Origin: a virus
Taxonomy: Duplodnaviria; Caudoviricetes
Direction: 5' to 3' (one strand)
Virus record (IMG/VR): IMGVR_UViG_3300049485_000064
Location: 1-29,273 of that record
Length of the DNA stretch: 29,273 nt
Below are positions 3 through 28,366 of the stretch, piece by piece; positions within the stretch are counted from its first letter, which is position 1, and every line of letters starts with the position of its first letter. The notes under the pieces are model-generated. The model was not told where the DNA came from, searched no databases, and saw only the letters and a program-made list of their open reading frames with translations. Made by a program: the position numbers and the translations under genes.

Positions 3-1391
3 CCCAGCCCCTGTTGAGATGCAATCGACTGTCACGCCATTCTCACGGCACTTGTATTTGTTGCCAGTCGAGTCGTACCACATATCCCCGTTATTTGGAG
101 CCCCAACGAGTCCTGCTTGCGATCCTATGTTGAGTCCTGCGTTCGTGCCGTTTGGGTTGAACGTCTGCGTGACCCCATCAGGAAACGCAATCGCTCCAGA
201 GATAGTCGGGGTAGTGATGGTGGGCGAACCGGCACGCACGAACCCTCCGCTTGTACCTGTTTCATCGGTGAGATTTCCAGCTAATTCCGCCGAGGTGGTC
301 GCGGCGAGCGAGCTGAGATTATCGGCTGTCCGCACATAGGTCTGAACGGACCCGCCATTCTCGTGACTTTTGAGTTTCGAGTCGGCGGAATCGAAGTACA
401 TATTGTGTTCACCTGCCCCTGCCCCTGCGCCAGGTGCTGCGCCTTCCGTGATCGTGAAATAGCCCGTGCCACCCGTGCTGGCAAACCCACCAGAGCAGGT
501 CAGTAGATTCGCGTCGCTGATCGTGCAACCAGACGATTGAATGGTAGTGCCCCCTGTACCATCAGCCCGAATAATTGCGTTGTCAGTCGCACCCGTCGAG
601 CCACCAATGCCGCCCGCGCCCCCTGTATCTAGGTCGCTGGCCGTGCCATTTTGACACTTGCGAAAGTTGGTCGTGGTGCTATTGGCTTTGATCCAGTAGT
701 TCCCTGCGGCGCAAGTAGAATCACCAGCAGTCTCACTAAACTCAATCCCAGGACCTGGTATAACTAATGTACTTGGAAGGGATAATGTAATAGCGCCAGT
801 GGAGGCTGAACTAGTTACTTGATTAGCTGTACCTGTAATAGTTGTAGGCAAAGCCGTACAACCAGTAGCAACACCAGTGGTATTTACACCTTGGGCAAAT
901 TGTCCGGCAGAACAATCTGCACCATCAGCGGCCAAGGCTGTAGCTGTTGCTATATTACCTGCTGGTACCACGTAGTCAGTACCAGAAACAGCAATACTAA
1001 GAACACCAGTTGTAGTAGTGTTTTTGAGTATTCCCGTGGCTAATAGCCCAAGAGCCTGCTCATTGGTCAACGTACCATCGTTGGTTTGAGTGATATAAGT
1101 AGCACCTGATGGGGCACCACCAGAACTACAAGCTCCCCATGTAGGTAAGCCAGCAGTTACTACTAGGCACTGGCCAGCTGTACCGATACCTATACGCTCC
1201 CAAGTAGTATTAAAGCGTATAATATCACCTGCTACACCTGCTGCTCCGGTGCTGTCACTGTGGGTAGAGGATAGCATATTGTGGTTAGAACCACCACCAC
1301 CTCCACCACCAGGACTAAATACATCCGATTGAACAGGGCTAGAAAGGAGCAATCCCACTAGCAAACATAGAATAGAAAAAGTTTTTTTCAT
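3..1391 (-). CDS. Fibre-like Gly/Thr/Ser-rich virion or surface protein with N-terminal signal peptide (3'-partial, runs off the left edge)
   Basis: Not in the ORF track because it is open at the edge. Hand translation from ATG 1391 (ATGA overlap with the upstream stop, GAGG upstream) gives MKKTFSILCLLVGLLLSSPVQSDVFSPGGGGGGGSNHNMLSSTHSD...GDIIRFNTTWERIGIGTAGQCL...NGDMWYDSTGNKYKC. No stop was seen and the frame matches at both ends. GD-x-W-Y-D and GTAGQ-x-L units are typical of phage fibres. Confidence 0.85.
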   Translation of the reverse strand, partial: MKKTFSILCLLVGLLLSSPVQSDVFSPGGGGGGGSNHNMLSSTHSDSTGAAGVAGDIIRFNTTWERIGIGTAGQCLVVTAGLPTWGACSSGGAPSGATYITQTNDGTLTNEQALGLLATGILKNTTTTGVLSIAVSGTDYVVPAGNIATATALAADGADCSAGQFAQGVNTTGVATGCTALPTTITGTANQVTSSASTGAITLSLPSTLVIPGPGIEFSETAGDSTCAAGNYWIKANSTTTNFRKCQNGTASDLDTGGAGGIGGSTGATDNAIIRADGTGGTTIQSSGCTISDANLLTCSGGFASTGGTGYFTITEGAAPGAGAGAGEHNMYFDSADSKLKSHENGGSVQTYVRTADNLSSLAATTSAELAGNLTDETGTSGGFVRAGSPTITTPTISGAIAFPDGVTQTFNPNGTNAGLNIGSQAGLVGAPNNGDMWYDSTGNKYKCRENGVTVDCISTGAG

Positions 1392-2215
1392 GCTACCCTC
1401 ACATCTGCGTGAACCATGCTCTGAATAGCAGCCTTGTTGCTAAGCATGGCAACAAAAGAATCATAGCCACCTTCTAGGTATTCTTCACCAACCGGCTTGA
1501 TCTCATATATTACATTGTCAGCCAGGCCTTCGATGGCTACAATGATCTTGGCAACGCTCAAGCTATTTGCTACCGCAGCGGTTGTGCCAGGGGCAGTGGT
1601 TGATCTAAACCTTGCCCCATAGAGACCAAGTGGAACACCGGTGCCGTGACCGGCTTCTAAAGGAGCCCAGTCATTTGGGATGCCCCATACGATTAAGTTC
1701 TCACCAATAGCATAGTGGCCACTTGATATAGGTGCTACGAGTAGATTTGTTAATACTTGCCACGTGCCACCTGCTAAGCTATACTCCATCGTACGCACTG
1801 GGTTAGTTCCAGCCGAAGCCGTCCCAACATCAATACATAGAGTATTAAATGGATTCCTAGCAGCCACTAGAAAACCATCATTTGCCGTTAGGGTCTCCAT
1901 CGGGAAGTCAGTAACAGTTGCATTTTGGGCGTCCACTGTGTCGTTAGTGAAAACAGTACCGGCATGTGTCCACTGACCGGCCACCCACTCACTTTTGTGA
2001 ACACGACCTCCAACTCCACACTGAATCACGTTGCCGGTACGATTTTGGATAGATGCAAAACCAAGGCCAAATCTGTATACTTCTTCTAACCTAGCACCAT
2101 AGGCTGCTATCCCAGGTGGTCTCCACAAAACACCGTCAAAACTATATGGTTTGCCGCCATCCATTAGGAGTTGGACTCCTCGGCTAATGGAGTTATAAGC
2201 ATATTGTGTTCTCAT
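1388..2215 (-). CDS. Hypothetical virion structural protein (beta-rich)
   Basis: 275-aa ORF with AGGAGG RBS, located in the structural operon. No family recognised. Confidence 0.75.
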   Translation of the reverse strand: MRTQYAYNSISRGVQLLMDGGKPYSFDGVLWRPPGIAAYGARLEEVYRFGLGFASIQNRTGNVIQCGVGGRVHKSEWVAGQWTHAGTVFTNDTVDAQNATVTDFPMETLTANDGFLVAARNPFNTLCIDVGTASAGTNPVRTMEYSLAGGTWQVLTNLLVAPISSGHYAIGENLIVWGIPNDWAPLEAGHGTGVPLGLYGARFRSTTAPGTTAAVANSLSVAKIIVAIEGLADNVIYEIKPVGEEYLEGGYDSFVAMLSNKAAIQSMVHADVRVA

Positions 2216-3014: not shown

Positions 3015-4295
3015 TTAGTTGATATGTGCGACCACGATATTGGTAGTGATTCCATCCCAACGAACACAGCTCGCGGGCCGGTCGTTGGAGAAGTTCTCAA
3101 ACACCCGATATCGCGCTTCGTAGGCATCAACGTCTACCAAACGAAGCAGGATCGTGCCGTCATCATCGGCCCATTCACCCTCGACCTCACTCCAACGAGT
3201 GAAGTGCATCGGGTCAATGCCGAACAAGGTTCCATAGGGAGCATCCTTGTCAACATACCAAGGAAGGTCACCAAAAGTGATGTCCTTCATCTTGGCAGCT
3301 ACTGTGCCGGCATCTGGGCTCCGAAGGTCTCCACCAGAATAACGCCGATCTACTTCCATCAGCGTCAAGTATGCTCGGCGGACCGAGTGGTGGCAGACAA
3401 AGAATTGAACAGAACCTTCTCCAACTTGATCTGCCACATCCAAACCTCTCTGAAGGATATCAGCAGACAACGGGCCGACTGAGGCCACGTTTACGGAGTT
3501 GAAGATTGGGAATGTGGTACGGTTGACGTTATGAAGAGTGCTTACATAATCTCCATCATCAACCAGGCCTAACAGACCCATGCTTTCCTTGTTGGTGCTA
3601 GTATCAGCCAACGAAGTGGTTCCAGGCTTTGCGGCCTGAACTACAAAATCGTTGTCTGCATAAGAAGCATCAGCCGCCGCGTCGATGGTACAAGTCAAAC
3701 CATCATTGGCAACCGCTGTAACCTTGCGCGCCGTACCGGACCTGATAGCTGGGCCGGTTGGGTTTACAATATGGATGTACATGTTTTTTTGGATCCAACG
3801 TCCACCGTTGATAGCACCGGCTACGTTGCCAGGAGAATCCAACGTCAACGTAGTGGTTGTGCCTGGATCTCCATTGAGTAAGCACAACACACCTGAGCCG
3901 TACCCAAACATTGCCCGGTTGAGCTTGTTTGAGAGATCTCGCACCACACCAGCCATTTCCTGATCCATTGCCCGTTTGAAAGCACCTTTGTTAGAACGCG
4001 AATGCTTGATTACTTGAATGGACAACTGGATACGACCGTGGGCGTATCTGATAGGAACTTGATGCTCGATGTACTCCTGATTACCAGCATCTGGCAATGT
4101 GCCGTTTTCACTGGTAAACATGGTACCCTGGTTGCGACCCACGTTGAGTGGATACCTAACCACACGACCTTCCCACGAGCCAGTTTCCTTTTTGAAACGA
4201 TTTCTTGTTACAGTCCTAGAGTTGAGCAAGACTATGATAGTCTTCTCATACACTTCCTTAAGGGCTGCGTCATATGCTGAGATGTCAAGTCCCAT
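3015..4295 (-). CDS. Major capsid protein (HK97 fold)
   Basis: 426 aa directly after a scaffold-like gene, GGAG RBS. Motifs ALKEVY, GRVVRYPL..GRN....E.G.LP, GAF..A...EM......L...LNR..FG.GSG and F.D.PW..D.DAP are typical of phage MCPs. Confidence 0.88.
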   Translation of the reverse strand: MGLDISAYDAALKEVYEKTIIVLLNSRTVTRNRFKKETGSWEGRVVRYPLNVGRNQGTMFTSENGTLPDAGNQEYIEHQVPIRYAHGRIQLSIQVIKHSRSNKGAFKRAMDQEMAGVVRDLSNKLNRAMFGYGSGVLCLLNGDPGTTTTLTLDSPGNVAGAINGGRWIQKNMYIHIVNPTGPAIRSGTARKVTAVANDGLTCTIDAAADASYADNDFVVQAAKPGTTSLADTSTNKESMGLLGLVDDGDYVSTLHNVNRTTFPIFNSVNVASVGPLSADILQRGLDVADQVGEGSVQFFVCHHSVRRAYLTLMEVDRRYSGGDLRSPDAGTVAAKMKDITFGDLPWYVDKDAPYGTLFGIDPMHFTRWSEVEGEWADDDGTILLRLVDVDAYEARYRVFENFSNDRPASCVRWDGITTNIVVAHIN

Positions 4296-5132: not shown

Positions 5133-5477
5133 CTAACCAAGAACTATCTCATCACCCGTCACAACTATAACGAGAATGTTATTAGTTCCAGCTGACAGCG
5201 TTAAGATTTCTGCTGCGTCCATGATTAGATACAGAAAGATATCTCTAACGCTATCAGTAACACCAGCTGCTTTTGCTGGTATACTGTAAGTCTCCAACAG
5301 ACGTGTCCCAGCTGCATCGGCTCCAACTGATACAGTAAGTGTAACAGGAGATGCTGATGGGTTATTTACATGGATCTGTCTTATGATGGTTTTTGTCAGA
5401 GCCGGTACAGTATATACGGTTGTTGGTCCAGTAGCTACTAATGCCGGGCCTACTAAGCGTTTTGGAATACGTGCCAT
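5133..5477 (-). CDS. Small beta-sandwich virion protein (putative)
   Basis: 114 aa with AAGGAG RBS. The TVYTVPA.TKTII..I.V.N pattern is common in phage structural modules. Confidence 0.7.
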   Translation of the reverse strand: MARIPKRLVGPALVATGPTTVYTVPALTKTIIRQIHVNNPSASPVTLTVSVGADAAGTRLLETYSIPAKAAGVTDSVRDIFLYLIMDAAEILTLSAGTNNILVIVVTGDEIVLG

Positions 5478-5486
5478 AGGATCTCC

Positions 5487-6125
5487 TTATATTCCTTTTA
5501 ACTCACTTTGCACTAAGGTATTAGTACCAGAAAATGATGCTCCCCCATTTACCGAGGCACCGATTATCAAGTTGGCTACAGTAGAATCGAAAGCAGCCGA
5601 TGTTACTGTGAGAATGCCAGTACCAGAAGCACCTGTTGAAATCAAACCAGTCGCGGCCAAATGATGCGTACAACGGCAGATTCCTACCAACACAGCCGAT
5701 GCTCCTATATTGCGGATGTGAGCGAGAATTTCAAACGTACCTGTATCAATTGCCGCAGTTCCGGCACCAAAAGTAAAAGTTAAACGTGCAGCGTCGGCAG
5801 TAGTACCAGCGGTACCTACTCTCACATTGATTGCAAAAGCGGCGGTACCAGCCGCAGTTTTCACCATATCAAAAACAAGACGATAGAGAGTTTTGGCTTT
5901 TAGTAAGGTACTAGGAATTGCAATCGAAGAACCTACTAAATAAGTATCTGCGGCAAAACCCGTTTGGTTGGCAGTACTAGCATTTTCAATATCCCCAAGT
6001 GTATCTACACTACCAGAATCATCTTTGGACTGCCATTTTTTGGAAGTACTATCAACCCAAATAATAGACTGTCCTGCAGATGGTGTTGCAGGTGCGCTTT
6101 GGACATCTAATAAAAGTTCAGACAT
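5487..6125 (-). CDS. Fibre/spike-like virion protein
   Basis: 212 aa, Ala/Thr/Gly-rich. N-terminal SAPATPSAG....WVDS fibre-like unit followed by a beta-rich C-terminal domain. Coupled to the collagen gene. Confidence 0.65.
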   Translation of the reverse strand: MSELLLDVQSAPATPSAGQSIIWVDSTSKKWQSKDDSGSVDTLGDIENASTANQTGFAADTYLVGSSIAIPSTLLKAKTLYRLVFDMVKTAAGTAAFAINVRVGTAGTTADAARLTFTFGAGTAAIDTGTFEILAHIRNIGASAVLVGICRCTHHLAATGLISTGASGTGILTVTSAAFDSTVANLIIGASVNGGASFSGTNTLVQSELKGI

Positions 6126-6754
6126 TAGTTCCCTATACGTAAGCGCCCGGTTCCGGCTACTGTGGCTCTCTGTGTTGAAGTTAGTTGTATGCGCTTGGCT
6201 GCGATATAATAGTTTCCAGTATTGACTGTAAAAGACCCAGGGGTATAGGAAGTATTACCACCTGCTCCTGGAGCACCAGTAGGGCCTTGATTACCTATTG
6301 GACCTGGAATAATGTAAGGGATTTCAGGTTCTTCGGCATCAAGTCCAGGAGGTCCTGGTACTCCAGATGCACCAGCCGCACCATTTATGCCTATTGTACC
6401 AGGATTGCCAGCAGGTCCTGGGAAGCCCATTTCACCCTGATCACCTTCGAGACCATCTACCCCCGGTACGCCTTGTGCGCCTGTAAAACCTTGGATGCCT
6501 TGAATACCTTGGACACCCATTGAGCCAGGTAAGCCCATGACACCTTCATCACCTTCGGGGCCTTCTAAGCCAGATGGACCAGTTTGGCCTACTGGACCTC
6601 TAGAGCCTACTGGACCAGGAATAAGCGATACCGACTCATCAGCATCTTGGCCGTCCGTAGCAATACCAGGAGGTCCTTGTGGGCCTGCTGGGCCTGTGGC
6701 ACCAGGAGGTCCTGGCGAACCACCTGATCCTGGAGGATAAAAAGCATCACTCAT
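6125..6754 (-). CDS. Collagen-like (Gly-X-Y) fibre protein
   Basis: Long Gly-X-Y runs (GPPGATGPAGPQGPPG..., GLEGPEGDEGVMGLPG...) with two acidic interruptions each ending in IPGP. Confidence 0.9.
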   Translation of the reverse strand: MSDAFYPPGSGGSPGPPGATGPAGPQGPPGIATDGQDADESVSLIPGPVGSRGPVGQTGPSGLEGPEGDEGVMGLPGSMGVQGIQGIQGFTGAQGVPGVDGLEGDQGEMGFPGPAGNPGTIGINGAAGASGVPGPPGLDAEEPEIPYIIPGPIGNQGPTGAPGAGGNTSYTPGSFTVNTGNYYIAAKRIQLTSTQRATVAGTGRLRIGN

Positions 6755-7050
6755 TGGGGTTCCTTGTCTAAGGTCATTCTACCACCAACCTGAACTGCTG
6801 CGGTGGAGTTGAAAATTAAAGCCTCATTGGTATTGGTGCTTACCCAAGGCATGTTAGATGCGTCAATTACCATAACCATGTTGGCCTTTATGGGCATTCC
6901 ACCTACTAGAATGTTTGCACCACTTTTGATCTGGATTGTGGTATCTCCACCCGGCACAAAGAACATCTGTCTGATCTTATACCTAAATCCCGCAGCCGCA
7001 GCCAAGATTGTATTATCACCAGATGCGCTAAAATCAATCTTGGCTTCCAT
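6751..7050 (-). CDS. Small beta-sandwich virion protein (putative)
   Basis: 99 aa, translationally coupled on both sides, with alternating hydrophobic beta patterns. Confidence 0.65.
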   Translation of the reverse strand: MEAKIDFSASGDNTILAAAAGFRYKIRQMFFVPGGDTTIQIKSGANILVGGMPIKANMVMVIDASNMPWVSTNTNEALIFNSTAAVQVGGRMTLDKEPQ

Positions 7051-7258: not shown

Positions 7259-8905
7259 CTATTGATGTTGGTTAGAACCACCACCGCCGAGGGCGACGCT
7301 GCCGCCTTCTCGCGCGGTGTCCATTGTTTTATCACCCTTCTCATGGGCTTTGCTTGTTGTTTCAGATTTAGGGCCACCTGATGGCGAACCAGGCTTGGCC
7401 TGCGGCTCAGATCCTGGCGGGGGCGGCATAGCCATCAAGTGGTCCAATAGGTGGTTCTGCCAATAAAGTTTTTTCCAAGGCTCTAACATACGGTATTGTT
7501 CGGTTCGAGATGGTTTGCGGTGTTCCATAATGTGGACCAGATGGTTGTCAAACAGAGGTTCTACCTTTGGTCCACCTTCTGGAAATGGCATCGGTGACAT
7601 TGGATCTAGTACAGGTTCACCGGTAGTTGGGTCTGCAGGAACTTGCCAATCCAATAAGGCTTGCCACTCGCCGGAGGCGTAGCGTACATCCTCGTCATTG
7701 GCACCTAGGATATTTGTCATACCAAACATCTTGGCTATTTCGTAGCCTTGTTGGGGGTCGGCTGGATTGATGACTCCGATCTTTGCCATCGCTTCAACCA
7801 TTGCTTGTTCTGCCAACTTTGAGCGAGGCCGCGCCGACCCGCCTTCAATCCGTATGTCCACAGACCCTTTGAGATCTGACCCTTTGAATGCTTGGATTTC
7901 CCAGCCACCTGTTGCACCTTTAATTTTCCGCATGCGCTCTTCGGTTGCATAAGTGCGGAATAGTTTGATTAAGATTGTATAAAGCTGGACCCAACCAGCT
8001 TCCCAGTTTGCAAACACTGATACGAAACGTCCATAGCTACGTTCTGTAAGAAGTTGAATGGCATAGCCAGCGGAGACGCCTCGTGGGGTGTTACCTTTCA
8101 TAGCATCAAAGGTGCCAGCGATTTCCTCAAAGTCTGCTTCGTAGCCTTTTTTGAGTTCTAACATGGCGGCGTGAAAGGGAGCTACTGTGACTATTTCAGG
8201 TTTCGCGCCACCAGTACCTGTTGGGGTCCATCTAATTACTTGTGATGGTTCACCTGCTATGTTGCTTATGGAGGAGCCATTTGGAATTATCCAGTTATTA
8301 TGGGTACCTTTCATTGAGGCCAACTCCAGAAGCGACTCAAGCCGGTTGAGTTGATCCTGCTTAGGGATGATGTCATACATTGGGGTTTTGGAATATAACC
8401 TACCAGGCACCATGTTATAGCCAAACTTGACCAAGGGACAGTAGTATTGCTTACCATTTTTGGTCTCTTCAAAAAATGGTGATGGTCCAGATTCGAGGCA
8501 GATGCTATCCATAGTACAAACGGCATCGAGGCCTTCTGGGTATTTTTCAGACGGCATCTGGACATGGCGTAGTAAGGTCACCCGGTCGCGTTGTACGGCA
8601 CCTGTGAGGTTGTAGCCAGAATCCTCGGTGCTATAGGCTAGAGCGTCCATGAAGTATTGCGCCGAACGGGTGGCTGAGTGGGTGTCAGGGTGGATTTTGT
8701 CTACCATATCAGGGTAGCGTTCTTTTACTGTATCTACGCCGTAGCTTTTTGCAACCGTGAATTTTAGTTGCTTGGCCATGTCAGTTATGTCTACGTTTAG
8801 GTAGATTTCTAAGGGAGAGCAGATATCTACTTTTAAGCGGCCAACTGGGTATTCTTCCACAAGAAGGACAAGCTCCGGCATCTTCCCATAGCTTAGGCTG
8901 GGCAA
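7259..8905 (-). CDS. Portal protein, C-terminal part (real coding likely begins near 8860, after the frame break)
   Basis: P22-like portal features: PGRLYSKTPMYDIIPKQDQLNR, GNTPRGVSAGYAIQLL.E, F.G.DL....DIRIE.GS, plus a Pro-rich tail. The annotated start has no clear RBS. Confidence 0.8.
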   Translation of the reverse strand: MPSLSYGKMPELVLLVEEYPVGRLKVDICSPLEIYLNVDITDMAKQLKFTVAKSYGVDTVKERYPDMVDKIHPDTHSATRSAQYFMDALAYSTEDSGYNLTGAVQRDRVTLLRHVQMPSEKYPEGLDAVCTMDSICLESGPSPFFEETKNGKQYYCPLVKFGYNMVPGRLYSKTPMYDIIPKQDQLNRLESLLELASMKGTHNNWIIPNGSSISNIAGEPSQVIRWTPTGTGGAKPEIVTVAPFHAAMLELKKGYEADFEEIAGTFDAMKGNTPRGVSAGYAIQLLTERSYGRFVSVFANWEAGWVQLYTILIKLFRTYATEERMRKIKGATGGWEIQAFKGSDLKGSVDIRIEGGSARPRSKLAEQAMVEAMAKIGVINPADPQQGYEIAKMFGMTNILGANDEDVRYASGEWQALLDWQVPADPTTGEPVLDPMSPMPFPEGGPKVEPLFDNHLVHIMEHRKPSRTEQYRMLEPWKKLYWQNHLLDHLMAMPPPPGSEPQAKPGSPSGGPKSETTSKAHEKGDKTMDTAREGGSVALGGGGSNQHQ

Positions 8906-9503
8906 CTTGGCTGCAGATTGGGCAGCCTAAGGATTCTATTTTGGTTTTACCTAAGGAGATATCCTTTTTATCATAATAAGGAAAGGCAAAAGCATCGGCG
9001 TTTAGAGTAACCCATTTAGCAATAGACTCACGTAGGTGGTCTATGTCAATTTCTGGGTTAATAACCTCTATCACGCGGTCGGCAATGTTTGCCGCTGCTA
9101 TGTCCTCGACATCTTGAGTAGCAGGCCAAGCCGAAGGTTCTACTTTCGTGCTTTGGATTGCCGCGCAAAGGGTGTCGGCAGTGGAGGCGAATCGGTTGGT
9201 GACTGGCTTAGGGACCCACTTTCTAACCTTTTTCTCTCGCCAACGTCTAGAACGAGCATCCCAGGTAAGCCACTGGTTTCCAAGGTAGTAGAGAATTGAT
9301 CTGAACCAGAGCCTCTCAAAGGCCCATCTAAGTTTATCGACTTCGCGCAAGTGTTCAAGGACGTCTGAGGCAATTTTTGCTCCATCGGCGTATGGGTCCT
9401 TTTCGGCTTCCTGGGCCGCGGTGCCAACAGGTGGGTTGACAACCGCATCCCCAGCGTTGCTAAACATATTAAAGATTTTATCTAGCCCTGCGCTAATGTT
9501 CAT
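8781..9503 (-). CDS. Portal protein, N-terminal part with CxxC..CxxC insert
   Basis: ATG 9503 overlaps the upstream stop (ATGA). FERLWFRSILYYLGNQW...PVTN...D..AA is a portal N-terminal pattern. After CPIC..CPSCG the frame runs out of register over the second part. Confidence 0.78.
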   Translation of the reverse strand: MNISAGLDKIFNMFSNAGDAVVNPPVGTAAQEAEKDPYADGAKIASDVLEHLREVDKLRWAFERLWFRSILYYLGNQWLTWDARSRRWREKKVRKWVPKPVTNRFASTADTLCAAIQSTKVEPSAWPATQDVEDIAAANIADRVIEVINPEIDIDHLRESIAKWVTLNADAFAFPYYDKKDISLGKTKIESLGCPICSQVAQPKLWEDAGACPSCGRIPSWPLKSRYLLSLRNLPKRRHN

Positions 9504-9772
9504 GTGCAAGCCCTACGGAAAGAGGTGACCGGGAAAAGAGAAGACCCAAGCATCCCCAACGGCAAAATCCTAGCAGGTACCTCATTGACAGATATGCTAA
9601 GGCTATTTGCTCCATCACATATCCTATCAATGAAGTCCTCCATTGGGGCCTGCTTGGGAGCCAATCGAGGTTGGTCAGACCTCCACCTTGGCCGGGTGTC
9701 GTCTAGCATTAGCTTCTCGCCGGCGTTGGTTGCCTTTGTCAAGGGAGCATTAACTAGATCATGGTTAGTCAT
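9500..9772 (-). CDS. Hypothetical protein
   Basis: Start moved to ATG 9772, overlapping the stop of the previous gene. Fills the gap exactly up to the portal start. Confidence 0.55.
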   Translation of the reverse strand: MTNHDLVNAPLTKATNAGEKLMLDDTRPRWRSDQPRLAPKQAPMEDFIDRICDGANSLSISVNEVPARILPLGMLGSSLFPVTSFRRACT

Positions 9773-10046: not shown

Positions 10047-10149
10047 AACTCCTCCAGCCGCAATTTATACACCTAATAGTGTTACACTTACACCCAAAGT
10101 CATAAGCCACTTCCGCTATACAATGGCCATGACATTTGGGACATTTCAT
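9895..10149 (-). CDS. Small zinc-ribbon protein
   Basis: MKCPKCHG...RCINCG. ATGA-coupled to the terminase nuclease gene. The C-terminal half overlaps the next gene. Confidence 0.65.
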   Translation of the reverse strand: MKCPKCHGHCIAEVAYDFGCKCNTIRCINCGWRSYAMVQESICHITGRGDISFKEKPGRPKSIQRPVGGEAFNAGRRAYGASNG

Positions 10150-10856
10150 ACAAACTCCCCAACACCTTCTTCATACTTGGTTTCTTCAAAGTCTCCATCT
10201 AGATAATCATCAATGTCTGGTTTATCCTCTAGCAGGCCTTGCTTAACGGCATCGGCCCGCCAATATCGGGCAGACATGGGATCTTCCTTGCTCAACCGTT
10301 GTAATTGTTCATCTAACCCAGGTCGCTTGGACTGCTGTTGCGGAGTCAGGAGCCGAACGGCGTAGGCCATAGCATCTAGGATATCCCGTGTCCGCCCTAA
10401 TGGGAATGTTTCATACTCCTCGATAAACTCAGTCATTCCACGCTGGATGTAGATTTGCCCAGACCTAAAATAAGGCTGCATCGAAAGGATGCGTTGTTCT
10501 TTTTTCTCCAACCTATCAGGTTTCAAATTGATAATAGGCCAATACTCACCTTTGTCGGCCATCGCTTTTAAGGTGTAAGGTTCAAGAGACTTCTGATAAG
10601 CAACCATCTCAATGCCTATACAACGGGGTTGCCAGAAGTGGGCCATTTGGAGGTAGGTCTCGATAATTTTAGCTGGATCACCTTGCCGGCCGCACCAATA
10701 CTCTAGCAAAAACATCTTCTGATAAGGCGACATACCCATCGCAACAATCGCCGTCCTCGCGGCGTTGGAACGCTCAGATATGGCAGGATCCACACAGATC
10801 ACTATATCCAGTGTGCTACGCAGTACGGTGATGGTCTTTTTGACATCAATGCTCAT
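10146..10856 (-). CDS. terL: Terminase large subunit, nuclease (RNase H fold) domain as separate gene
   Basis: IVICVDPA, IGIEMVAYQ, K..RI..MQP, and FPLGRTRDILDAMAYA are hallmark TerL C-terminal motifs. Confidence 0.9.
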   Translation of the reverse strand: MSIDVKKTITVLRSTLDIVICVDPAISERSNAARTAIVAMGMSPYQKMFLLEYWCGRQGDPAKIIETYLQMAHFWQPRCIGIEMVAYQKSLEPYTLKAMADKGEYWPIINLKPDRLEKKEQRILSMQPYFRSGQIYIQRGMTEFIEEYETFPLGRTRDILDAMAYAVRLLTPQQQSKRPGLDEQLQRLSKEDPMSARYWRADAVKQGLLEDKPDIDDYLDGDFEETKYEEGVGEFV

Positions 10857-11068
10857 CGACGCCTCATCATACGATCATATGCGTTGGCTCTATCAATAGC
10901 ATTGGTTTGCCTCAAAGTCTCGGCATCATCACTAAAGGCCTCTTGCTCAGGGTCTACTGATCTAATAGAACGTCCCCGGTCAACTTTGCTATTATAGACA
11001 CTCACATCCTTCATGTAATTATCAAATTGCTTTTTGCTTCGCTGGGAACGTGGATTGCGCTGGGCCAT
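10853..11068 (-). CDS. Hypothetical 71-aa protein between the two TerL halves
   Basis: ATG 11068 lies 2 nt after the ATPase stop with GAGGT upstream. Its stop overlaps the nuclease ATG. Confidence 0.65.
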   Translation of the reverse strand: MAQRNPRSQRSKKQFDNYMKDVSVYNSKVDRGRSIRSVDPEQEAFSDDAETLRQTNAIDRANAYDRMMRRR

Positions 11069-11070
11069 TT

Positions 11071-11982
11071 TCAACCGACCTCGGCTAAAATGTTCAAACT
11101 CTCGTCGTTGAAACCATAGTATTGGAGCCAACCCGCCTTAAAATCAACAATGGCCTCGTCTCTAGGGTCATTCATCTGTTGCGTAGCATACATGTAAGGA
11201 TCCTTGAGGCGAAGCTCTAACAAGCTGTCCAGCGGGAACCGAATGGGCCAAACCGGCAACTTCGTCACCTGGTCAATGGCCTGGATCCTATTAACCGTAT
11301 ACTCCCGCTCATTGTTAATAATATGCTGGTACAAGTCAAACATCGCCCAACGTGTTCCCACCAACTGGTCGATACCTTGAACCGGCGATTCGAGTAAGTT
11401 CTTGGTCAAAAGGTGCCAGTCTATGATTTTCTCCATAACCTCTGGCGAACGTTCAGTTTTCTCGTCTATCAGGTCATCTTTTGAGAGAACATCAAAGTGC
11501 CAACCTGTGATGTGTCCGCCGACACCGATACATTTGAAGGTTGATTCAGGATGGTTTTTTGTGCGGGGCAGCAAGATCTCCATCTCGGCCCACTTATCAC
11601 CCTTCATATCAGGTATGCACTCAGGAAACAACCAATGTAGCAAGGTGTTAGTCTCGAAGATCTGTTTAATCTTGCGAAGGTTCTTCATACTATTCTCACG
11701 ACTCGAAGCCGCCAACATAATACGCACATTATTGTTACACAAATAGTATTGGATGTTTTTGGCAATTGTAATGATGTGGGTTTTGAGATGTCCACGAGGC
11801 CATAAATCCAACTGCCGCCCAAATGGCTCTCGCAGAGTGTCAAGCTGCGCGCAGCGTGGACCATGAAACGCCGGGTCCATATCCTTAAAATCAAGTATGC
11901 CTTTGGCAAGCACATACAAGTTAGTCTGCGCCAATAACCTTAGCTCAGACCAGCGATCCTTTGCTGAGTGCGAGGCCTTCAC
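11071..11982 (-). CDS. terL: Terminase large subunit, ATPase domain as separate gene
   Basis: Walker A PRGHLKT, Walker B region ITGWHFDVLSKDDL, coupling motif VGTRW, and PVWP.RF...YATQQMNDP. Likely GTG start at 11982. Confidence 0.9.
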   Translation of the reverse strand: MKASHSAKDRWSELRLLAQTNLYVLAKGILDFKDMDPAFHGPRCAQLDTLREPFGRQLDLWPRGHLKTHIITIAKNIQYYLCNNNVRIMLAASSRENSMKNLRKIKQIFETNTLLHWLFPECIPDMKGDKWAEMEILLPRTKNHPESTFKCIGVGGHITGWHFDVLSKDDLIDEKTERSPEVMEKIIDWHLLTKNLLESPVQGIDQLVGTRWAMFDLYQHIINNEREYTVNRIQAIDQVTKLPVWPIRFPLDSLLELRLKDPYMYATQQMNDPRDEAIVDFKAGWLQYYGFNDESLNILAEVG

Positions 11983-12220
11983 GAACCGCTTCAGCCTCGA
12001 CAATGACTCTTCCAAGGAACTCAAGTTGCGCCTCCGTAACCGTGGGTGCTTTACCCTTCGACTTGCCGACTTGACTAAAATTAAGTATATCCACCGCCGC
12101 TTTACGTTTAACGTCATCAGAGTCGGCAAATGTCAACACGTCCTTCAACGTCTGGACCGCGTCCACGTTCAAATCGTGGATACCCTTGGCAACCTTTTCC
12201 TCGACAGTTTCATCAAGCAT
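11945..12220 (-). CDS. Terminase small subunit-like protein (putative)
   Basis: First gene of the late arm, directly upstream of TerL. Helical AVQTLKDVL....SDDVKRKAAVDIL pattern. ATG 12220 follows AAGGGG. Confidence 0.55.
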   Translation of the reverse strand: MLDETVEEKVAKGIHDLNVDAVQTLKDVLTFADSDDVKRKAAVDILNFSQVGKSKGKAPTVTEAQLEFLGRVIVEAEAVREGLALSKGSLV

Positions 12221-22032: not shown

Positions 22033-22555
22033 CTCAATAGATGAAACTCTTTCCGAACGTAACAGTGTACACGGAAATTATGACTCACAAGCACTACTAG
22101 CAGAGACCCTAAAAGAATTAATCCACGTCCAACCAACATGGCACAGATTAGACTACAACCAACGACATGCCTTAGATATGATTCTAACAAAAATATCTCG
22201 CATAATGATTGGTTCCCCATATCACGCAGATCATTGGTTTGATATTCAAGGTTATGCAAGATTAATAGAAAGAAATCTAATCAAGGAGATCACAAAAAAT
22301 GGAAGCGACACAGAATATTGTGCACCTACCAATCACGCGCCTAAAACCCCACCCATTGAACACCACACTCTACGAGAGCATGACCGAGGAGTCGGACCAG
22401 TTCCTACAACTACTGGCTTCAATGAAAGACCACGGAGTTTTGCAACCCTTACAAATACGCCCCGACGGGACGATCCTAAGCGGCCATCGTCGGCTCTGCG
22501 TAGCGCGAAGCTTGGAATTGGAAAAGCTCCCGTGCATCGTGGTAGAAGGCGGTGA
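22025..22555 (+). CDS. DUF6378-like protein
   Basis: I.ETL.ER...HG.Y...ALDMI..KISRI..G.....D.W.DI.GYA.L. The domain ends near 22290 and the rest overlaps the next gene. Confidence 0.75.
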   Translation: MSDSIDETLSERNSVHGNYDSQALLAETLKELIHVQPTWHRLDYNQRHALDMILTKISRIMIGSPYHADHWFDIQGYARLIERNLIKEITKNGSDTEYCAPTNHAPKTPPIEHHTLREHDRGVGPVPTTTGFNERPRSFATLTNTPRRDDPKRPSSALRSAKLGIGKAPVHRGRRR

Positions 22556-23603
22556 TGATCGACTCCTAATAGTCGAGAACAATCGCTACCGGCACAAAAC
22601 CTCTAGCGAACTGATGCGCGAAGCTGAGTTGATTGAGGCTGTAGTAAGGGAGAAAGCCCTAGCCAACCAAGCTCGTGCCGGCCTAGACAGAGACACTCCA
22701 GTAGAAACCAAAATCGAAACTCGTGAGGTTGTAGCGGGTGCCATTGGAATGGGCGCGCGTACCTTTAGTAAGCTAAAGAAAGTCTACGAAGCAGCCAAGA
22801 CTAACGCTAACGCCGCTGAGAAGATGGCACGTATTGATAAGGGTGATCTATCAGTAGACGCCGCATTCAAATCTCTGCGCGCTATTATGCCGAGTGAGGG
22901 TGAAGATGACGACGACAAAGAAGCTATCCCTGAGTTCATACGTTTTTATAACTCTTGGCAATTCTCTGAAAACGATCCGAGATTTGGAATCCCGCATCCA
23001 GGAAGAATCCCAGGTCAAATATCTGCTAATATTATCTATTACTATTCTGAGCCTGGGGATCTTGTGGTGGATCCTATGGCTGGGGGTGGTAGTACTCTGG
23101 ACGCTGCTGCCTTTCTGGGTCGTGAGGCGTTGGGTTATGACGTTGTGCCAAAGCGACCCGATATCCAGCAGTGGGACATCTCTAAAGGATTCCCCGACGC
23201 CGCCAAAGGATGCCAATTGATATTCATGGACCCGCCCTATTGGAACATGATGAAGGAGGGTTATAGTGACAAGTCAAGCAGTGATTTGTCATTAGGAGAT
23301 TTCAAAAACTGGTACCGAAAATTACTAGCAGATGCCGCACATACTGTGAAACCCGGCGGCTTTGTAACGGTACTAAACATGGGGCAATACTTCCGCTTAC
23401 CAGAATCTTTTGGTGATGGGTACATTGATTGGCCTGTGTTTGCCTACCATGAACTTCAACTTAATGCTATGCTCCCTTGGTCTCGCATAGCTGTAACCTA
23501 CCCCACCACCCTCCACACCGCGTTTGATGTTGAATCTGCAAAGAAGGGAAAGTTCTTCTTGCCAGTGCTTGGGGATATCATCGTAATGAGGAGGCCAAAA
23601 TGA
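22299..23603 (+). CDS. ParB-like N-terminal domain fused to amino (N6A/N4C) DNA methyltransferase
   Basis: LKPHPLN, GVLQPL.I..DGTILSGHRR (ParB/Srx), then VVDPMAGGGST (motif I) and FMDPPYW (motif IV). AAGGAG RBS. Confidence 0.85.
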   Translation: MEATQNIVHLPITRLKPHPLNTTLYESMTEESDQFLQLLASMKDHGVLQPLQIRPDGTILSGHRRLCVARSLELEKLPCIVVEGGDDRLLIVENNRYRHKTSSELMREAELIEAVVREKALANQARAGLDRDTPVETKIETREVVAGAIGMGARTFSKLKKVYEAAKTNANAAEKMARIDKGDLSVDAAFKSLRAIMPSEGEDDDDKEAIPEFIRFYNSWQFSENDPRFGIPHPGRIPGQISANIIYYYSEPGDLVVDPMAGGGSTLDAAAFLGREALGYDVVPKRPDIQQWDISKGFPDAAKGCQLIFMDPPYWNMMKEGYSDKSSSDLSLGDFKNWYRKLLADAAHTVKPGGFVTVLNMGQYFRLPESFGDGYIDWPVFAYHELQLNAMLPWSRIAVTYPTTLHTAFDVESAKKGKFFLPVLGDIIVMRRPK

Positions 23604-23809
23604 ACACCACTATCCTAATCATAATAAGTTTTAGCATCGGCCTAGCTTTTGGTTCTGCCTTCTTCGCCGTGTGCAACACTAAGGCATTTGAGTTCCAAGA
23701 CAACCCAACCACACGCTTCCAACTCCAGCAACAGCGGCAAGAGATGGAACAACTACGTCAACAGCAGGAAATGTATAGACAGGAACAGAGGAGAAACCCG
23801 TGCCCATAA
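23600..23809 (+). CDS. Small membrane-anchored/secreted Gln-rich protein
   Basis: Hydrophobic N-terminus followed by a Q/E/R coiled coil. GAGGAGG RBS. Confidence 0.7.
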   Translation: MNTTILIIISFSIGLAFGSAFFAVCNTKAFEFQDNPTTRFQLQQQRQEMEQLRQQQEMYRQEQRRNPCP

Positions 23810-24948
23810 AAGATTGCGTCGGCTGCCCATCCTCAGTTGTAAACACCGGCTTTGCTATGGGTGAAGGCCCCACCACAGCCCCTATCATGTTTATTGGCGA
23901 AGCTTTGGGTGAACAAGAAGTAAACGAAGGCCGACCCTTCGTAGGTGGCACAGGCAAAATGCTTCGTATGATGCTCCATCAAGCCGGTATCACCGAAGGT
24001 ATGCGTTACATAACCAACGTAGTTAAGTGCCGACCGCCAGGCAACCGCACTCCTACACCCACCGAAATAGACCACTGTACCATGCGATATCTAAACAAGG
24101 AGCTAGCTTATGTCAAACCTAGAGTGGTTGTACCCGTGGGTGATATTGCCCTTCGCTTTATTGCCCCTGGTACTCACACTGGCATTGTGGCTTCTAGAGG
24201 GTACACTTTCCACCAGCCAGAAAGAGTGGTCATTCCTATTGTACATCCTAGTTTTGTTGCTCGTGGTAATCCTCATTATTGGGCTATCACTATTGCAGAC
24301 CTTCTAAAAATAAAAGACGCCGCGCTCGGCAAATCCAGACCACACCCAGAAGAACGTTTCATAATACGCCCAACAATAGATCAAGTCGAAGAAGCTCTAG
24401 ATAAAATAAAACGCGGCAGGTTGCGCTTCACATTCGACCTCGAAACAATTGGCGAACGCGAGACCCTCAACATCATGTGCATAGGTTTTGCTTGGTCTGA
24501 ATCAGATGCAATCTGCATCCCACTACTAACACGAGGTGGCCATGTATACTGGAAGTCCCCTGCCCAAGAGGAAGAAGTTTGGCGTCTTATGTGCGAGCTA
24601 TTTGATTCTGACATTGACTGTGTTGGTCAGAATATTTTCACATTCGATATTCCCAAGCTCTTGGAATTGGGTGTTAGATTCCGCCGAACTAATAGTCTTG
24701 GTAATTCTCGGGCTCACGATACTCTTATACGACACCACAATATAGCAACTGAGTTGCCTCACTCGTTGGCTTTTCTAGGTAGTATCTATACAGATATCCC
24801 ACACTACAAGCTAATGGTTAAAGGTGCAGGCGGCATGATGTGGGCGCCTGATGAGATCATGTGGACTTACAACTGCCGGGATTGCATCACTACATACATA
24901 GCAGATGTGCATATAACTAGAGAGATGATAGAAGGAGGGTTGGCATGA
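23800..24948 (+). CDS. Family-4 uracil-DNA glycosylase-like domain fused to 3'-5' exonuclease (N-terminal half of SPO1-type DNA polymerase)
   Basis: GEALG..E...GRPFVG..G, TNVVKCRPP.NR.P, HPS. ExoI FDLET, ExoII QN..FDI, ExoIII YN..D. Confidence 0.9.
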   Translation: MPIKDCVGCPSSVVNTGFAMGEGPTTAPIMFIGEALGEQEVNEGRPFVGGTGKMLRMMLHQAGITEGMRYITNVVKCRPPGNRTPTPTEIDHCTMRYLNKELAYVKPRVVVPVGDIALRFIAPGTHTGIVASRGYTFHQPERVVIPIVHPSFVARGNPHYWAITIADLLKIKDAALGKSRPHPEERFIIRPTIDQVEEALDKIKRGRLRFTFDLETIGERETLNIMCIGFAWSESDAICIPLLTRGGHVYWKSPAQEEEVWRLMCELFDSDIDCVGQNIFTFDIPKLLELGVRFRRTNSLGNSRAHDTLIRHHNIATELPHSLAFLGSIYTDIPHYKLMVKGAGGMMWAPDEIMWTYNCRDCITTYIADVHITREMIEGGLA

Positions 24949-25427
24949 CGAGCTTGTTATTACTATGCATCGTGAACTTTACGACCTTCAGCCTTGGCCA
25001 TCTTGAAGCCGCGAGTCGAACCTGCGCCATTGCGGAGTCAGAGGAGGAGGCCGCGTGGACGGTGTACGCACAACACCGATATGGCTATCCTGAGCAGTTA
25101 AAGTCCTCCGTACCTAGTGTAACGCTCTATCGACTTGATACGCTCACCATGACGCTGACAGAAATTCCACTCAAAATTGTGGAGGTGAAGGAACAACTGG
25201 AGCAGAATAAACGAGCCGGGGTACGAGTCACGGAGCTTGGGACGCTGCCCTCTATTGGTGTGACGGATCTAGACGTGGCGTGTCTCGGCAAGATGGAAAA
25301 CGCTATGCGAATCATGGACCCGTTCCTCGACCCACATGATAGTGGACTATCAGTTGAATGGCTCTCGCCTGTCACACGAGAACGCTTTCTGGTGTGGCAA
25401 TCAGTCAAGCGCGAGTGCTGGAAATAA
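24945..25427 (+). CDS. Hypothetical protein inserted between the polymerase halves
   Basis: 160 aa, ATGA overlap with GGAGG RBS, hydrophobic N-terminus, and more G/C-ending codons than its flanks. Confidence 0.7.
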   Translation: MTSLLLLCIVNFTTFSLGHLEAASRTCAIAESEEEAAWTVYAQHRYGYPEQLKSSVPSVTLYRLDTLTMTLTEIPLKIVEVKEQLEQNKRAGVRVTELGTLPSIGVTDLDVACLGKMENAMRIMDPFLDPHDSGLSVEWLSPVTRERFLVWQSVKRECWK

Positions 25428-25429
25428 CC

Positions 25430-26650
25430 ATGCCCTACTATGACGAAGTAGTCCAACATCTTCAATGGGCGGTTATGGATATCCAGATGGCTGGTATCCT
25501 GGTTGATCTCAATAAGTGTTCAGAGCTTATAGCCAAAGCAGAAGCTCAACGCGCGCAGCACCGAGAAACCCTCACTAGATGCTTCGGCTACGACTTCAAC
25601 CCGGCATCTCCTAAACAAGTAATCGAGGTATTCAAACAAGACCTTGGCATCCCAGTTGACGACTCCAACGCCATCACTCTCCTAAACACCATCATCAAAC
25701 ACCCAACCAAACCAATTGTTGAAGGTATCATAGAACACCGGGAGATGACCAAGGTAATAGGTACCTACCTAAAACCCAAAGTCTGGCCTGACCACCGACT
25801 GCGCAGTAGCCTACGAACCTATGGCACATTAACCTGGCGTCTGTCAAGCAAAGAACCCGACTTGCAGAATCAGCCCAGGGGAGAGGTACAAGGAATAAAT
25901 GTCAAAGACATATACATGGCACCCCCAGGCTATGTGCTTCTTGAACTCGATTACTCAGCACTTGAGGACCGTATCCCCGCTTACGCTTCAAGATGTACTA
26001 AGCTCATTAACATGTTTCAGAACGGTGAAAATACCCATCTCTACCGAGCAAGGCTCATTTTTAATAAACCTATCACTAATAAAAAAGACTTCCCAACAGA
26101 ATACGATTTCGCCAAGCGACTTCGTTATTCGCGTGGGTATGGAGCCAGCGTGCGGACCGTCTGCCTCAAGATGCTTGAAGATACCCATGAGTGGCATGCA
26201 GAAGAAGAAATAGCTCCCATGCTTAAAGCTATGGACGATGACGTTCCTGAGATCATGGCCTGGCATAATAAATGTTGGGCCGATGCAGAGCGTACTGGTC
26301 TACTATATGACGGCTTCGGCGTACCTCGCACTTTGTTTGAACCTCCAGGACGTAGACGCCAAGTAGCCTACAGCAGCCCAACCCAAACCACTGCTAGCGG
26401 GATAATGAACCGGGCCACAGTGAGAGCCTACTTGAACCGAGACAAGTTCCACCCTGACACACGTATCATATGCCAAGTACATGATTCGTTATTACTTGAA
26501 GTACGAGAGGATCTCGTTGAGGAGGAAGCATGGAAGATGAAGGGTTATATGGAAGTACCAGTTACCATATTCGACCAGGTAGTAAAGTTTCCAGTGGAAG
26601 CGAAATGGGGGAAGAGATGGGGGCAGATGAAAGAACTAAAGCTGAACTAG
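25430..26650 (+). CDS. polA: Family A DNA polymerase, polymerase domain
   Basis: GI.VD, FNPASPKQV, T.T.RLSS..P.LQN.P, motif A DYSALE.R, motif B AK...Y...YG, motif C VHDS. Likely start MPYY at 25430. Confidence 0.92.
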   Translation: MPYYDEVVQHLQWAVMDIQMAGILVDLNKCSELIAKAEAQRAQHRETLTRCFGYDFNPASPKQVIEVFKQDLGIPVDDSNAITLLNTIIKHPTKPIVEGIIEHREMTKVIGTYLKPKVWPDHRLRSSLRTYGTLTWRLSSKEPDLQNQPRGEVQGINVKDIYMAPPGYVLLELDYSALEDRIPAYASRCTKLINMFQNGENTHLYRARLIFNKPITNKKDFPTEYDFAKRLRYSRGYGASVRTVCLKMLEDTHEWHAEEEIAPMLKAMDDDVPEIMAWHNKCWADAERTGLLYDGFGVPRTLFEPPGRRRQVAYSSPTQTTASGIMNRATVRAYLNRDKFHPDTRIICQVHDSLLLEVREDLVEEEAWKMKGYMEVPVTIFDQVVKFPVEAKWGKRWGQMKELKLN

Positions 26651-26967
26651 ACCTTAGTAATGTTCTATTCACTCTATTAGAGGCTAGAGGTATAGTATTA
26701 GATACTAAAGACGTGACGACCCTTGAATTTTTTCTAAAGGAACTGGTTCCTATAATTTTTCTGCGGGAGAAAGGTTATCATGATCTTTTTAATTCTCTTC
26801 TAGAAGGAGACTTCCATCTTGAGTCTGATAGAAGCATAGAAGCACTGGGACGTACAAGGCGCAAAAGTCTATTCATTCCAATGTACTCTATCAAACGCAT
26901 CAAAGGTTCTGTAATAATCGAAAGGTCCATAGAACGAGATGGCTATATCATCAGACGAACGCCTTAA
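26605..26967 (+). CDS. Hypothetical protein
   Basis: Fills the gap between polymerase and helicase. Start uncertain (26530 to about 26617). Confidence 0.55.
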   Translation: MGEEMGADERTKAELDLSNVLFTLLEARGIVLDTKDVTTLEFFLKELVPIIFLREKGYHDLFNSLLEGDFHLESDRSIEALGRTRRKSLFIPMYSIKRIKGSVIIERSIERDGYIIRRTP

Positions 26968-28366
26968 TGAAGTCTATGCCATAATCGACTCTATAGATGA
27001 CTCAGCTCCGGCCTCTGTAAGACAGGAAGTTTTCAACTTCATCCGTAAATGGTGGACTGAGGTCGGTGAGTCTGTAGAACTTCGCAATCGGGTTTGTACG
27101 AAGCTAAGGATTGGTCCGGCCCAATTCAACATGCTTCTTATGAACCCTAGCCTAGCCTTTGGAGCCGAGACTTTACACAAAAGTCTAAAGCCTGGCTGGT
27201 TAAAGGACTATCTAGACTATACCTCAGGCCATGAAGCACCTGAGGATTTTCATGTCTGGGTTGGTCTAACCATCATAGGCGCGGCCATACGCCGGAGGGC
27301 TTGGATAGATAATGTCTATCATAAGTTCTATCCAAACCTCTATACCATACTTATCTCCCCTCCCGGCATCGGCAAAAAAACTACTGCTATAAACATCGGC
27401 GCAGACATCCTACGCGAAGCTGTCCCAGAATGCCGAATTATTAGTGAGAAGTGCACACCAGAAGCTCTAGCCAAACGCTTATCCAAACCTATGGAAATCC
27501 ACAAAGAATCCGGCGGCTTGAAAATAGAAGCTCGTGCTGAAGGAATAATTCTAGCACCTGAATTAACGGTATTCCTAGGCTCTGAGCAATACAACTCCGG
27601 CCTAATCATGTTCCTCACCCGTCTGTATGATTGTTCAAAGGTACTCGAAATAGATACCATCTCCCGTGGTACAGAGAAACTCAAGGAAGTTTGTGTCTCC
27701 CTCCTAGGTGCAACCACCCCAAGCGAAATCGACCGAGCTATACCATCATCTGCTAGAGGCGGCGGTTTCATGTCTCGTTTATGCTTGGTTCAAAAAGACT
27801 CTACCTCCCGTATCGTAGCTAAGGCAGTAAAAACAGACCCTACCATACGCGAACTGTTAGTGATCCAGCTGGGTAGAATCTATAACGAATGTGTTGGTGA
27901 GTTTAAACTAACCGATGAAGCCGATAAATGGTATGAAGAATACTACAAGCGGCACCATGAGGTCGTAGCAGCAGGCAATACTGTAATGTCTATTGAACGG
28001 CAGCCAGATCACCTCAAGAAGATAGCCATGATCCTTAGCGCAGCCGAACATTGTGGAATGAGCATAACCGAGGACCATCTCCAACGTGCATTCAACATCA
28101 TAGAAATCGCCGCACAGAATTGTGGAGATATTCTAAAAATGATCGACACATCAGAGCGTGGTAAGATGACCCAGCTTGTGTTGAATATAATCTCCCAAGC
28201 CGGTGGCATGTGTGGGAGAAGTTTTATCTGTCGCAAGGTCTACCGTCACATGAACGGCGCGGAGTTAGATATGTGCCTTAGGACTCTTGAAGAGGCCGGT
28301 TTGGTGGCACCTTTTAGAAATGAGAAAAAACAATTTTATAAATTAGTAAAATTGGAGGAGTCATGA
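26939..28366 (+). CDS. DUF3987/YfjI-like replicative helicase with C-terminal winged helix
   Basis: AP..FH.W.....PNLY..L..PPG.GKKTT, TPEAL, L..LYD, LLGATTP, GGF.SR, and a wHTH-like end (ELD..L.TL.EAG.V). Confidence 0.8.
   Translation: MAISSDERLNEVYAIIDSIDDSAPASVRQEVFNFIRKWWTEVGESVELRNRVCTKLRIGPAQFNMLLMNPSLAFGAETLHKSLKPGWLKDYLDYTSGHEAPEDFHVWVGLTIIGAAIRRRAWIDNVYHKFYPNLYTILISPPGIGKKTTAINIGADILREAVPECRIISEKCTPEALAKRLSKPMEIHKESGGLKIEARAEGIILAPELTVFLGSEQYNSGLIMFLTRLYDCSKVLEIDTISRGTEKLKEVCVSLLGATTPSEIDRAIPSSARGGGFMSRLCLVQKDSTSRIVAKAVKTDPTIRELLVIQLGRIYNECVGEFKLTDEADKWYEEYYKRHHEVVAAGNTVMSIERQPDHLKKIAMILSAAEHCGMSITEDHLQRAFNIIEIAAQNCGDILKMIDTSERGKMTQLVLNIISQAGGMCGRSFICRKVYRHMNGAELDMCLRTLEEAGLVAPFRNEKKQFYKLVKLEES

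Follow-up and report, generated by a model that had tools for sequence, protein, structure and literature searches.

In the textbook view tailed-phage assembly takes place wholly in the cytoplasm, and to our knowledge fibres of the T7 gp17 type (PF03906) are synthesized there without a leader. The receptor-binding protein pIII of filamentous phages carries a Sec leader, forms disulfides in the periplasm and ends up in the virion; it is membrane-anchored and added at the extrusion of a non-lytic ssDNA phage, whereas the tailed dsDNA phage to which the locus described here belongs is of the lytic type and builds its capsid in the cytoplasm. According to the accessible text of PMC6702177, gp17-type fibres dock between adaptor and nozzle. 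The protein studied here resembles them in its mosaic of beta-rich shaft modules, a distal binding domain and a late-operon position, but differs in its predicted leader, its five cysteine pairs, the absence of an anchor domain and its location behind the capsid genes. The MAT fibres of Bdellovibrio bacteriovorus, as described in the accessible part of PMC10769870, combine a signal peptide with a phage-fibre-like trimeric shaft, variable adhesive tips and, in some cases, disulfides; a conserved domain of ~130 aa follows the leader, and 13 of 21 carry S74. They are cellular genes of a predatory bacterium and not virion parts, whereas our protein is encoded in a phage structural operon, has a short peptide and a Gly linker after its predicted leader, and gave no match among PDB sequences.

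Disulfides in virions are described for Agrobacterium phage Milano, whose virion is disulfide-crosslinked (PMC10491603), and for a siphovirus tail tube (PMC13576161); the accessible parts of both texts mention neither signal peptide nor periplasm. These virion proteins have cysteine pairs, as does the protein studied here, but there the bonds join subunits of capsid, neck and tail. The initial annotation of our locus had reasoned from assembly in a reducing cytoplasm, a premise that has to be softened, since virion disulfides can form without export as far as these two sources go (PMC10491603; PMC13576161). A description of tailed-phage fibres exported by Sec was not found in the accessible texts of the literature searched (subscription journals and supplements lay outside its coverage); the main text of Demina et al. 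2025 (PMC11924767) mentions neither signal peptides nor tail fibres, and the accessible parts of a phi24B preprint and of PMC3426561 contain nothing on leader-bearing virion proteins. Virion disulfides, exported phage-like Bdellovibrio fibres and exported filamentous-phage pIII are each already known separately. The phage fibre is likewise of a known kind; the extracytoplasmic assembly route implied here would be new.

The window and the extent of the fibre-like gene

The window is an entire virus record of 29,273 bases, a single contig of an uncultured phage that by its sequence is podovirus-like (short-tailed). Searches against PHROG and Pfam recognised a split terminase, a P22-like portal, a major capsid protein, a family A polymerase and a primase/helicase (coordinates in Table 1). 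The complete 44.3-kb relative MW202554 has the same gene order, and comparison with it suggests that the window contig lacks ~15 kb, among them the genes for adaptor, nozzle and main tail fibre. The terminase consists of an ATPase ORF and a nuclease ORF with a 92-aa ORF in between; because MW202554 has the same split and a small intervening gene, we regard this as a real family trait. The two portal ORFs lie in different frames and each match phrog_156, while the portal of MW202554 is a single 742-aa gene, so that the split reading may stem from a frameshift or from an error of sequence assembly. Between portal and scaffold (5133-7050, minus strand) there are four small, leaderless and nearly Cys-free genes of 114, 212, 209 (with collagen repeats) and 99 aa; the corresponding interval of MW202554 is filled by leader-bearing appendage genes instead. 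On the plus strand, 23800-26650 encodes DNA polymerase A in two genes with a 160-aa ORF between them; a uracil-DNA-glycosylase-like domain is fused to the first of the two (MW202554 has two polymerase genes too). Also on the plus strand, 22299-23603 holds an N6/N4 DNA methyltransferase fused with a ParB-like domain.

Table 1. Coordinates of the fibre-like gene, its parts and the structural genes of the window
Feature	Position	Strand	Basis or remarks
Fibre-like gene	3..1391	(-)	ATG at 1391, no stop up to contig end; 463 codons visible
Predicted Sec/SPase I signal peptide, residues 1-22	1326..1391	(-)	sequence; tripartite leader rule; orthologue leaders
Predicted mature N-terminus, short x-F-x-P peptide (four or five residues) and seven Gly	1290..1325	(-)	sequence, alignment of kin
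Cys pair 75/88	1128..1169	(-)	homologous segments: both Cys 10 (all in leader-bearing proteins), neither 39, single 0
Cys pair 160/178	858..914	(-)	homologous segments: both 183, neither 0, single 13
Cys pair 227/246	654..713	(-)	homologous segments: both 30, neither 7, single 0
Cys pair 289/299	495..527	(-)	homologous segments: both 16, neither 19, single 0
Cys pair 448/457	21..50	(-)	homologous segments: both 21 (20 leader-bearing), neither 105, single 1
Leaderless 275-aa all-beta protein	1388..2215	(-)	stop overlaps fibre start; model pLDDT 89.9
Major capsid protein	3015..4295	(-)	phrog_14242, E 9e-48
P22-like portal, two overlapping ORFs	7259..9509	(-)	phrog_156; PF16510
Terminase large subunit, two ORFs	10146..12129	(-)	phrog_38

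The fibre-like gene is the third behind the capsid gene and lies on the same strand as terminase, portal and major capsid protein. Its ATG overlaps the stop of the preceding 275-aa gene (ATGA), and from 2874 to the fibre start we found nothing promoter-like on the minus strand, so the gene is likely part of the late operon. Among sequencing runs, a freshwater-sediment metagenome, which may be the source, was the only full holder, and no RNA run was listed as a holder. An assembled contig from the source-like run ends at the identical base and a second, 90%-alike contig spans the last 92 bases; the contig break therefore probably lies at a shared module. The initial annotation had described this gene without stating its 3' truncation: the leader-like sequence and the paired cysteines are confirmed, but 463 of probably about 800 residues are visible, the full-length protein being, to judge from its relatives, probably about 750-850 aa.

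The fibre-like protein had no match in Pfam, PHROGs, PDB sequences or GenBank phages, and the GenBank-phage search yielded no close homologue in a cultured phage. Leads in the ESM Atlas were all below 0.9, with a poor model (pTM 0.24), and the clusters were all viral by their features. Among the best matches listed, the nearest full-length relatives are P0003 (808 aa), P0021 (793 aa) and P0122 (852 aa), which match the last visible window residues and then continue for ~300 aa more. Full-length kin end in a conserved C-terminal domain of ~170-190 aa. A model of this tip, built from the relative L018 and not from the window gene (pLDDT 82), aligned with the CBM36/6/35-like beta-sandwich 7ay3_A (Z 13.0, rmsd 2.5, 123 residues aligned) at 8-20% identity. 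We thus predict a CBM6/35/36-like fold for the tip of the kin, which would likely bind a glycan, although the modelled domain could alternatively bind a downstream partner. The window gene likely encodes the N-terminal 60% of a fibre with such a lectin-like tip, the tip itself lying beyond the contig end. Its fibre nature is indicated by the position in the morphogenesis operon, by shaft modules common to leaderless fibre-like proteins and by the CBM-like tip of the kin. The tip domain also forms the C-terminal domain of EBPR siphovirus 2 gp74 (JF412297; 33.6% over 123 aa, E 2e-6), which is encoded in a tail module but is leaderless with one Cys and comes from a metagenomic phage.

The host of the phage is probably Gram-negative. 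Eleven of the 13 real genome matches of the kin's tip domain fell into Acidobacteriota bins. The two closest were on short contigs of 5-6 kb in unrelated bins, one labelled Bdellovibrionales and the other Bifidobacterium, and a host assignment from the tip-domain matches failed.

Predicted leader and cysteine pairs

The protein begins with MKKTFSILCLLVGLLLSSPVQS, followed by DVFSP after the predicted cut. We detected leaders by a tripartite rule (n-region, h-region, small residues at -3 and -1) rather than by SignalP; by this rule the leader consists of the basic n-region MKK, the nine-residue hydrophobic core LCLLVGLLL and small residues at -3/-1 of V-Q-S before D. A stricter version of the rule fired once in the whole window, at the fibre gene, and the working version was positive in 43 of 5,180 internal 60-aa windows (0.8%). 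The Sec signal peptide proposed initially is supported by this pattern and by the N-terminal orthologues P0002, P0003, P0019 and P0123, all four of which bear leaders that differ in sequence. P0003 has a canonical AFA before D in the same register as the cut predicted for the window protein, where SPase I is predicted to cleave at 22/23; in P0002, P0021 and P0123 this register places Pro at +1, and cleavage would have to fall a few residues earlier. The N-terminus is fully visible, and neither Pfam nor PHROG indicated a globular anchor domain after the leader; the x-F-x-P/Gly stretch that follows in the sequence is a candidate docking peptide. The visible 463 residues show no membrane anchor; the C-terminus, which could hold one, lies beyond the contig end.

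One cysteine of the window protein lies in the leader (position 9) and ten in the mature part. The latter form the five neighbouring pairs noted in the initial annotation, with spacings of 13, 18, 19, 10 and 9 residues. In 200,000 random draws ten cysteines fell into five pairs at most 19 residues apart in 0.26% of cases, and in 0.02% (again 200,000 draws) when the pairs had additionally to be at least 40 apart. Four of the five pairs are kept or lost as units among homologous segments, the exception being 160/178 (Table 1). Leaderless versions of the modules carried the cysteines in 0 of 25 cases for pair 75/88 and in 1 of 60 for pair 448/457; in the tree of the latter module the nine rows nearest to the window form one clade. 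The 160/178 module occurs in ten rule-negative proteins, mostly fragments or mis-started leaders. From their spacing and covariation in the sequences, the five pairs are likely to close as local disulfides.

For a broader comparison we used 259 homologues (the best 120 of 286 and the best 150 of 3,168 matches, overlaps merged). The leader, expected initially to recur in homologues, is present by our rule in 164 of the 259 (63%), while the others fail the rule; where present it is, by sequence, conserved in kind and not in sequence. Clustering at 60% identity gave 206 clusters, 125 leader-bearing and 81 leaderless, which are counts of related sequences and not of independent events. At least six cysteines were observed in 87 of the 125 leader-bearing and 12 of the 81 leaderless clusters (Fisher p 3e-15, kinship ignored), and among clusters with any cysteine an even count was found in 92 of 115 leader-bearing versus 20 of 58 leaderless ones (Fisher p 9e-9, kinship ignored). 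Fewer than six cysteines are present in 38 of the 125 leader-bearing clusters, so the link between export and disulfides is not a strict one. P0008 and P0025 have the same fibre modules, but are leaderless and nearly Cys-free. A tree of a shared module (74 rows) shows leader-bearing and leaderless proteins interleaved, with at least five changes forced on starred branches; in a comparison of leader presence with Cys richness over the 361-462 module, just five phylogenetically independent pairs lie on starred branches, and b differs in about one. Export and oxidative folding, as put forward in the initial annotation, draw good support from this comparison, with a leader conserved in kind, cysteine richness and even counts that track it, and covarying pairs.

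Neighbouring genes and tail modules of relatives

Residues 66-224 of the upstream 275-aa protein superimpose on residues 488-637 of 9efk_M, an 817-aa tail chain of podophage LME-1 (Z 12.1, rmsd 2.9, 147 aligned); in the accessible main text of PMC12407071 we found no assignment of this segment to a particular nozzle domain. Nozzle-like tail proteins of ~640 aa (L094-L096) contain a segment that the core of the family matches as well (E 2e-10 to 3e-6). A homologue of the 275-aa protein (34% identity) precedes a leader-bearing fibre in three loci (L021, L023, L062), and the fibre slot is absent in L003. The comparison covered 28 rows, of which 21 are informative after removal of three nozzle-like matches and four without downstream DNA; a leader-bearing gene comes next in 7 of these 21, for which reason we rejected the 275-aa protein as an obligate dock. 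Sequence and model leave it a candidate for a virion-side neighbour or dock of the fibre. In L076 and L080 the fibre slot is occupied by short fibres without a leader, and BLAST showed no similarity between these and the leader-bearing ones.

We next consider 45 non-duplicate loci with the tip domain (duplicates and short matches, L016, L020, L022, L024, L037-L039, L041 and L044, were left out). Six of the 45 are cut at the 5' end; the 39 visible starts have a leader by rule in 34 cases and by eye in the other five, and in 37 of the 45 loci the rule also detects a leader on the gene after the fibre. The loci are found in structural modules of podo-, sipho- and myovirus tail types: behind lambda-J-like tips (L033-L035), behind a baseplate wedge (L057), between siphovirus head and tail genes (L014, L015) and behind podovirus tail tubes (L013, L055). 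Several tip-domain relatives reside in prophages. A tyrosine integrase was found in none of four related records, one of them complete, and none is annotated in MW202554.

The clearest cases of leader-bearing fibres are the relatives L055, L043 and MW202554, the window gene being a truncated accessory example. In L055 the leader stands directly before a T7 fibre anchor (PF03906, above cut-off with E 1.9e-6; phrog_1640, E 5e-30); no second match to phrog_1640 was found in this genome, which is complete at 39 kb. The same tip, 43% to P0003, forms the C-terminus of the L055 protein, which also shares one shaft module with the kin of the window protein. P0132 has a T7-type N-terminal anchor domain as well. 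In L043 a separate leaderless, Cys-free 234-aa T7-type anchor gene lies immediately 5' of the leader-bearing fibre, a layout that, by sequence, is the one expected for a cytoplasmic dock and an exported fibre. MW202554 has a collar-domain fibre with a leader (by eye) after its nozzle-like gene, and five other appendage genes with leaders by eye: an 846-aa, a lectin-annotated and a tailspike-like one, one in the slot of the window fibre, and a stand-alone tip. The last is an unannotated leader-bearing gene of ~195 aa (~26470-27060 of MW202554, minus strand) that consists of the tip domain alone (E 2.7e-10).

A cassette follows the fibre in seven loci (L013, L014, L017, L018, L021, L023, L040). 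It starts with a ~245-aa leader-bearing partner with an Arg-rich tail (F.F.RRR) and continues with a variable leader-bearing protein ending in G..R(I/V/M)Q and a small leader-bearing protein. By their sequence these tails look like docking strands. In L058 (10573-11250) the partner gene has a twin-arginine-like leader (MLRREFIK), a hint that some cassettes employ Tat export. The window's own capsid and scaffold proteins, like its small decoration-like ones, lack a leader and have 0-4 cysteines.

Among cultured phages, Cellulophaga phage phi18:3 (KC821620) has three proteins, gp085-gp087, which start with leaders, contain 0-3 cysteines and are annotated as structural by MS/MS; they have no homology to the window protein. 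The MS/MS annotation could reflect co-purification, and no literature on these leaders was found in the accessible texts searched.

A probable exported virion fibre and its alternatives

The best reading of the locus, and one that we hold to be quite probable from its sequence, is an exported, disulfide-stapled virion fibre that is added at lysis. The fibre would be expressed late together with the capsid genes and exported by Sec to the periplasm of the host, where SPase I would remove the leader, the local cysteine pairs would be oxidised (DsbA-type) and the fibre would trimerise. Once holin and endolysin open the envelope, it would attach to the head, neck or tail of the cytoplasm-built particle, with a glycan bound by its tip or by a tip-bound partner. 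An accessory head, neck or side fibre is more likely than the main tail fibre, because the gene comes shortly after the capsid genes and its product lacks a tail-anchor domain; such a fibre would hook on via its N-terminal peptide.

The initial annotation had named two fates for the exported protein, addition to virions and display on the infected cell. Addition is favoured, and display is disfavoured by the coupling to the late operon, the leader-anchor fusions of relatives and the lack of a membrane anchor in the visible part. A protein that is exported without joining the virion, retained in the periplasm or displayed at the surface of an infected or lysogenic cell, or acting as a soluble decoy or receptor mask against superinfection or re-adsorption of progeny, seems to us rather unlikely. 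A leader with a lectin-like tip does resemble a surface adhesin such as the Bdellovibrio MAT fibres (PMC10769870, accessible part), lambda Lom is a leader-bearing gene within a tail module according to the accessible part of PMC12309495, and there are the prophage residence of several relatives and the lack of a tail anchor in the window copy. Against this, the leaders of relatives sit directly on T7-type anchor or collar fibre domains, once on the only such anchor found in a complete genome, the gene is tied to the late operon by its ATGA overlap, and the integrase searches above were negative. Moreover, full-length kin end as a soluble beta-sandwich. In comparison with type Vc anchors, a Pfam scan of 16 relatives gave no match in 15 and no YadA-type beta-barrel anchor in the 16th, and the kin's C-terminus models as the sandwich just mentioned (that of the window copy is missing).

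The same leader might be cleaved slowly or not at all and serve as a membrane tether, the trimer being picked up by particles at the inner membrane and its disulfides forming in air after lysis. The Pro at +1 of an A-x-A-like site in P0002, P0021 and P0123 would fit such a tether, as would the spontaneous disulfide formation in virions proposed in the accessible part of PMC13576161; yet the A-x-A site is canonical in P0003 and in most homologues, and even cysteine counts track the leader. A positively charged n-region with a short h-region places the mature chain outside the cytoplasm in Sec topology, and the leaders here have both, which also speaks against a tether, so that we consider it very improbable. 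That the leader is an artefact of start choice or chance, and the protein an ordinary cytoplasmic fibre, we can hardly credit: leader detection is indeed rule-based, but the fibre start overlaps the upstream stop, the rule is positive far more often in homologues (63%) than in internal windows (0.8%), and the leaders vary in sequence yet retain the pattern.

On a wider scale, we give about even chances to the idea that many tailed phages, podo-, sipho- and myoviruses alike, have a second assembly line in the periplasm, where a cassette of Sec-exported, disulfide-stapled fibres, tips and lectins would fold before clicking onto leaderless docks of the completed particle at lysis via short terminal peptides. 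Candidates for such peptides are the x-F-x-P/Gly hook here and the Arg-rich and G..R(I/V)Q tails of the partners. If this second line is real, particles would be non-infectious before the envelope opens, and co-infecting phages could swap fibres in the lysate.

The reading of an exported virion fibre is testable, as the cultured phage phi18:3 has leader-bearing proteins annotated as structural. If true, it would account for the escape of such genes from tail-fibre annotation, as with the missing Pfam and PHROG matches here. A Sec/Dsb-dependent host-recognition fibre would add an extracytoplasmic step to tailed-phage assembly, host range would depend on the export machinery of the host, and bacteria would gain a new point of defence.
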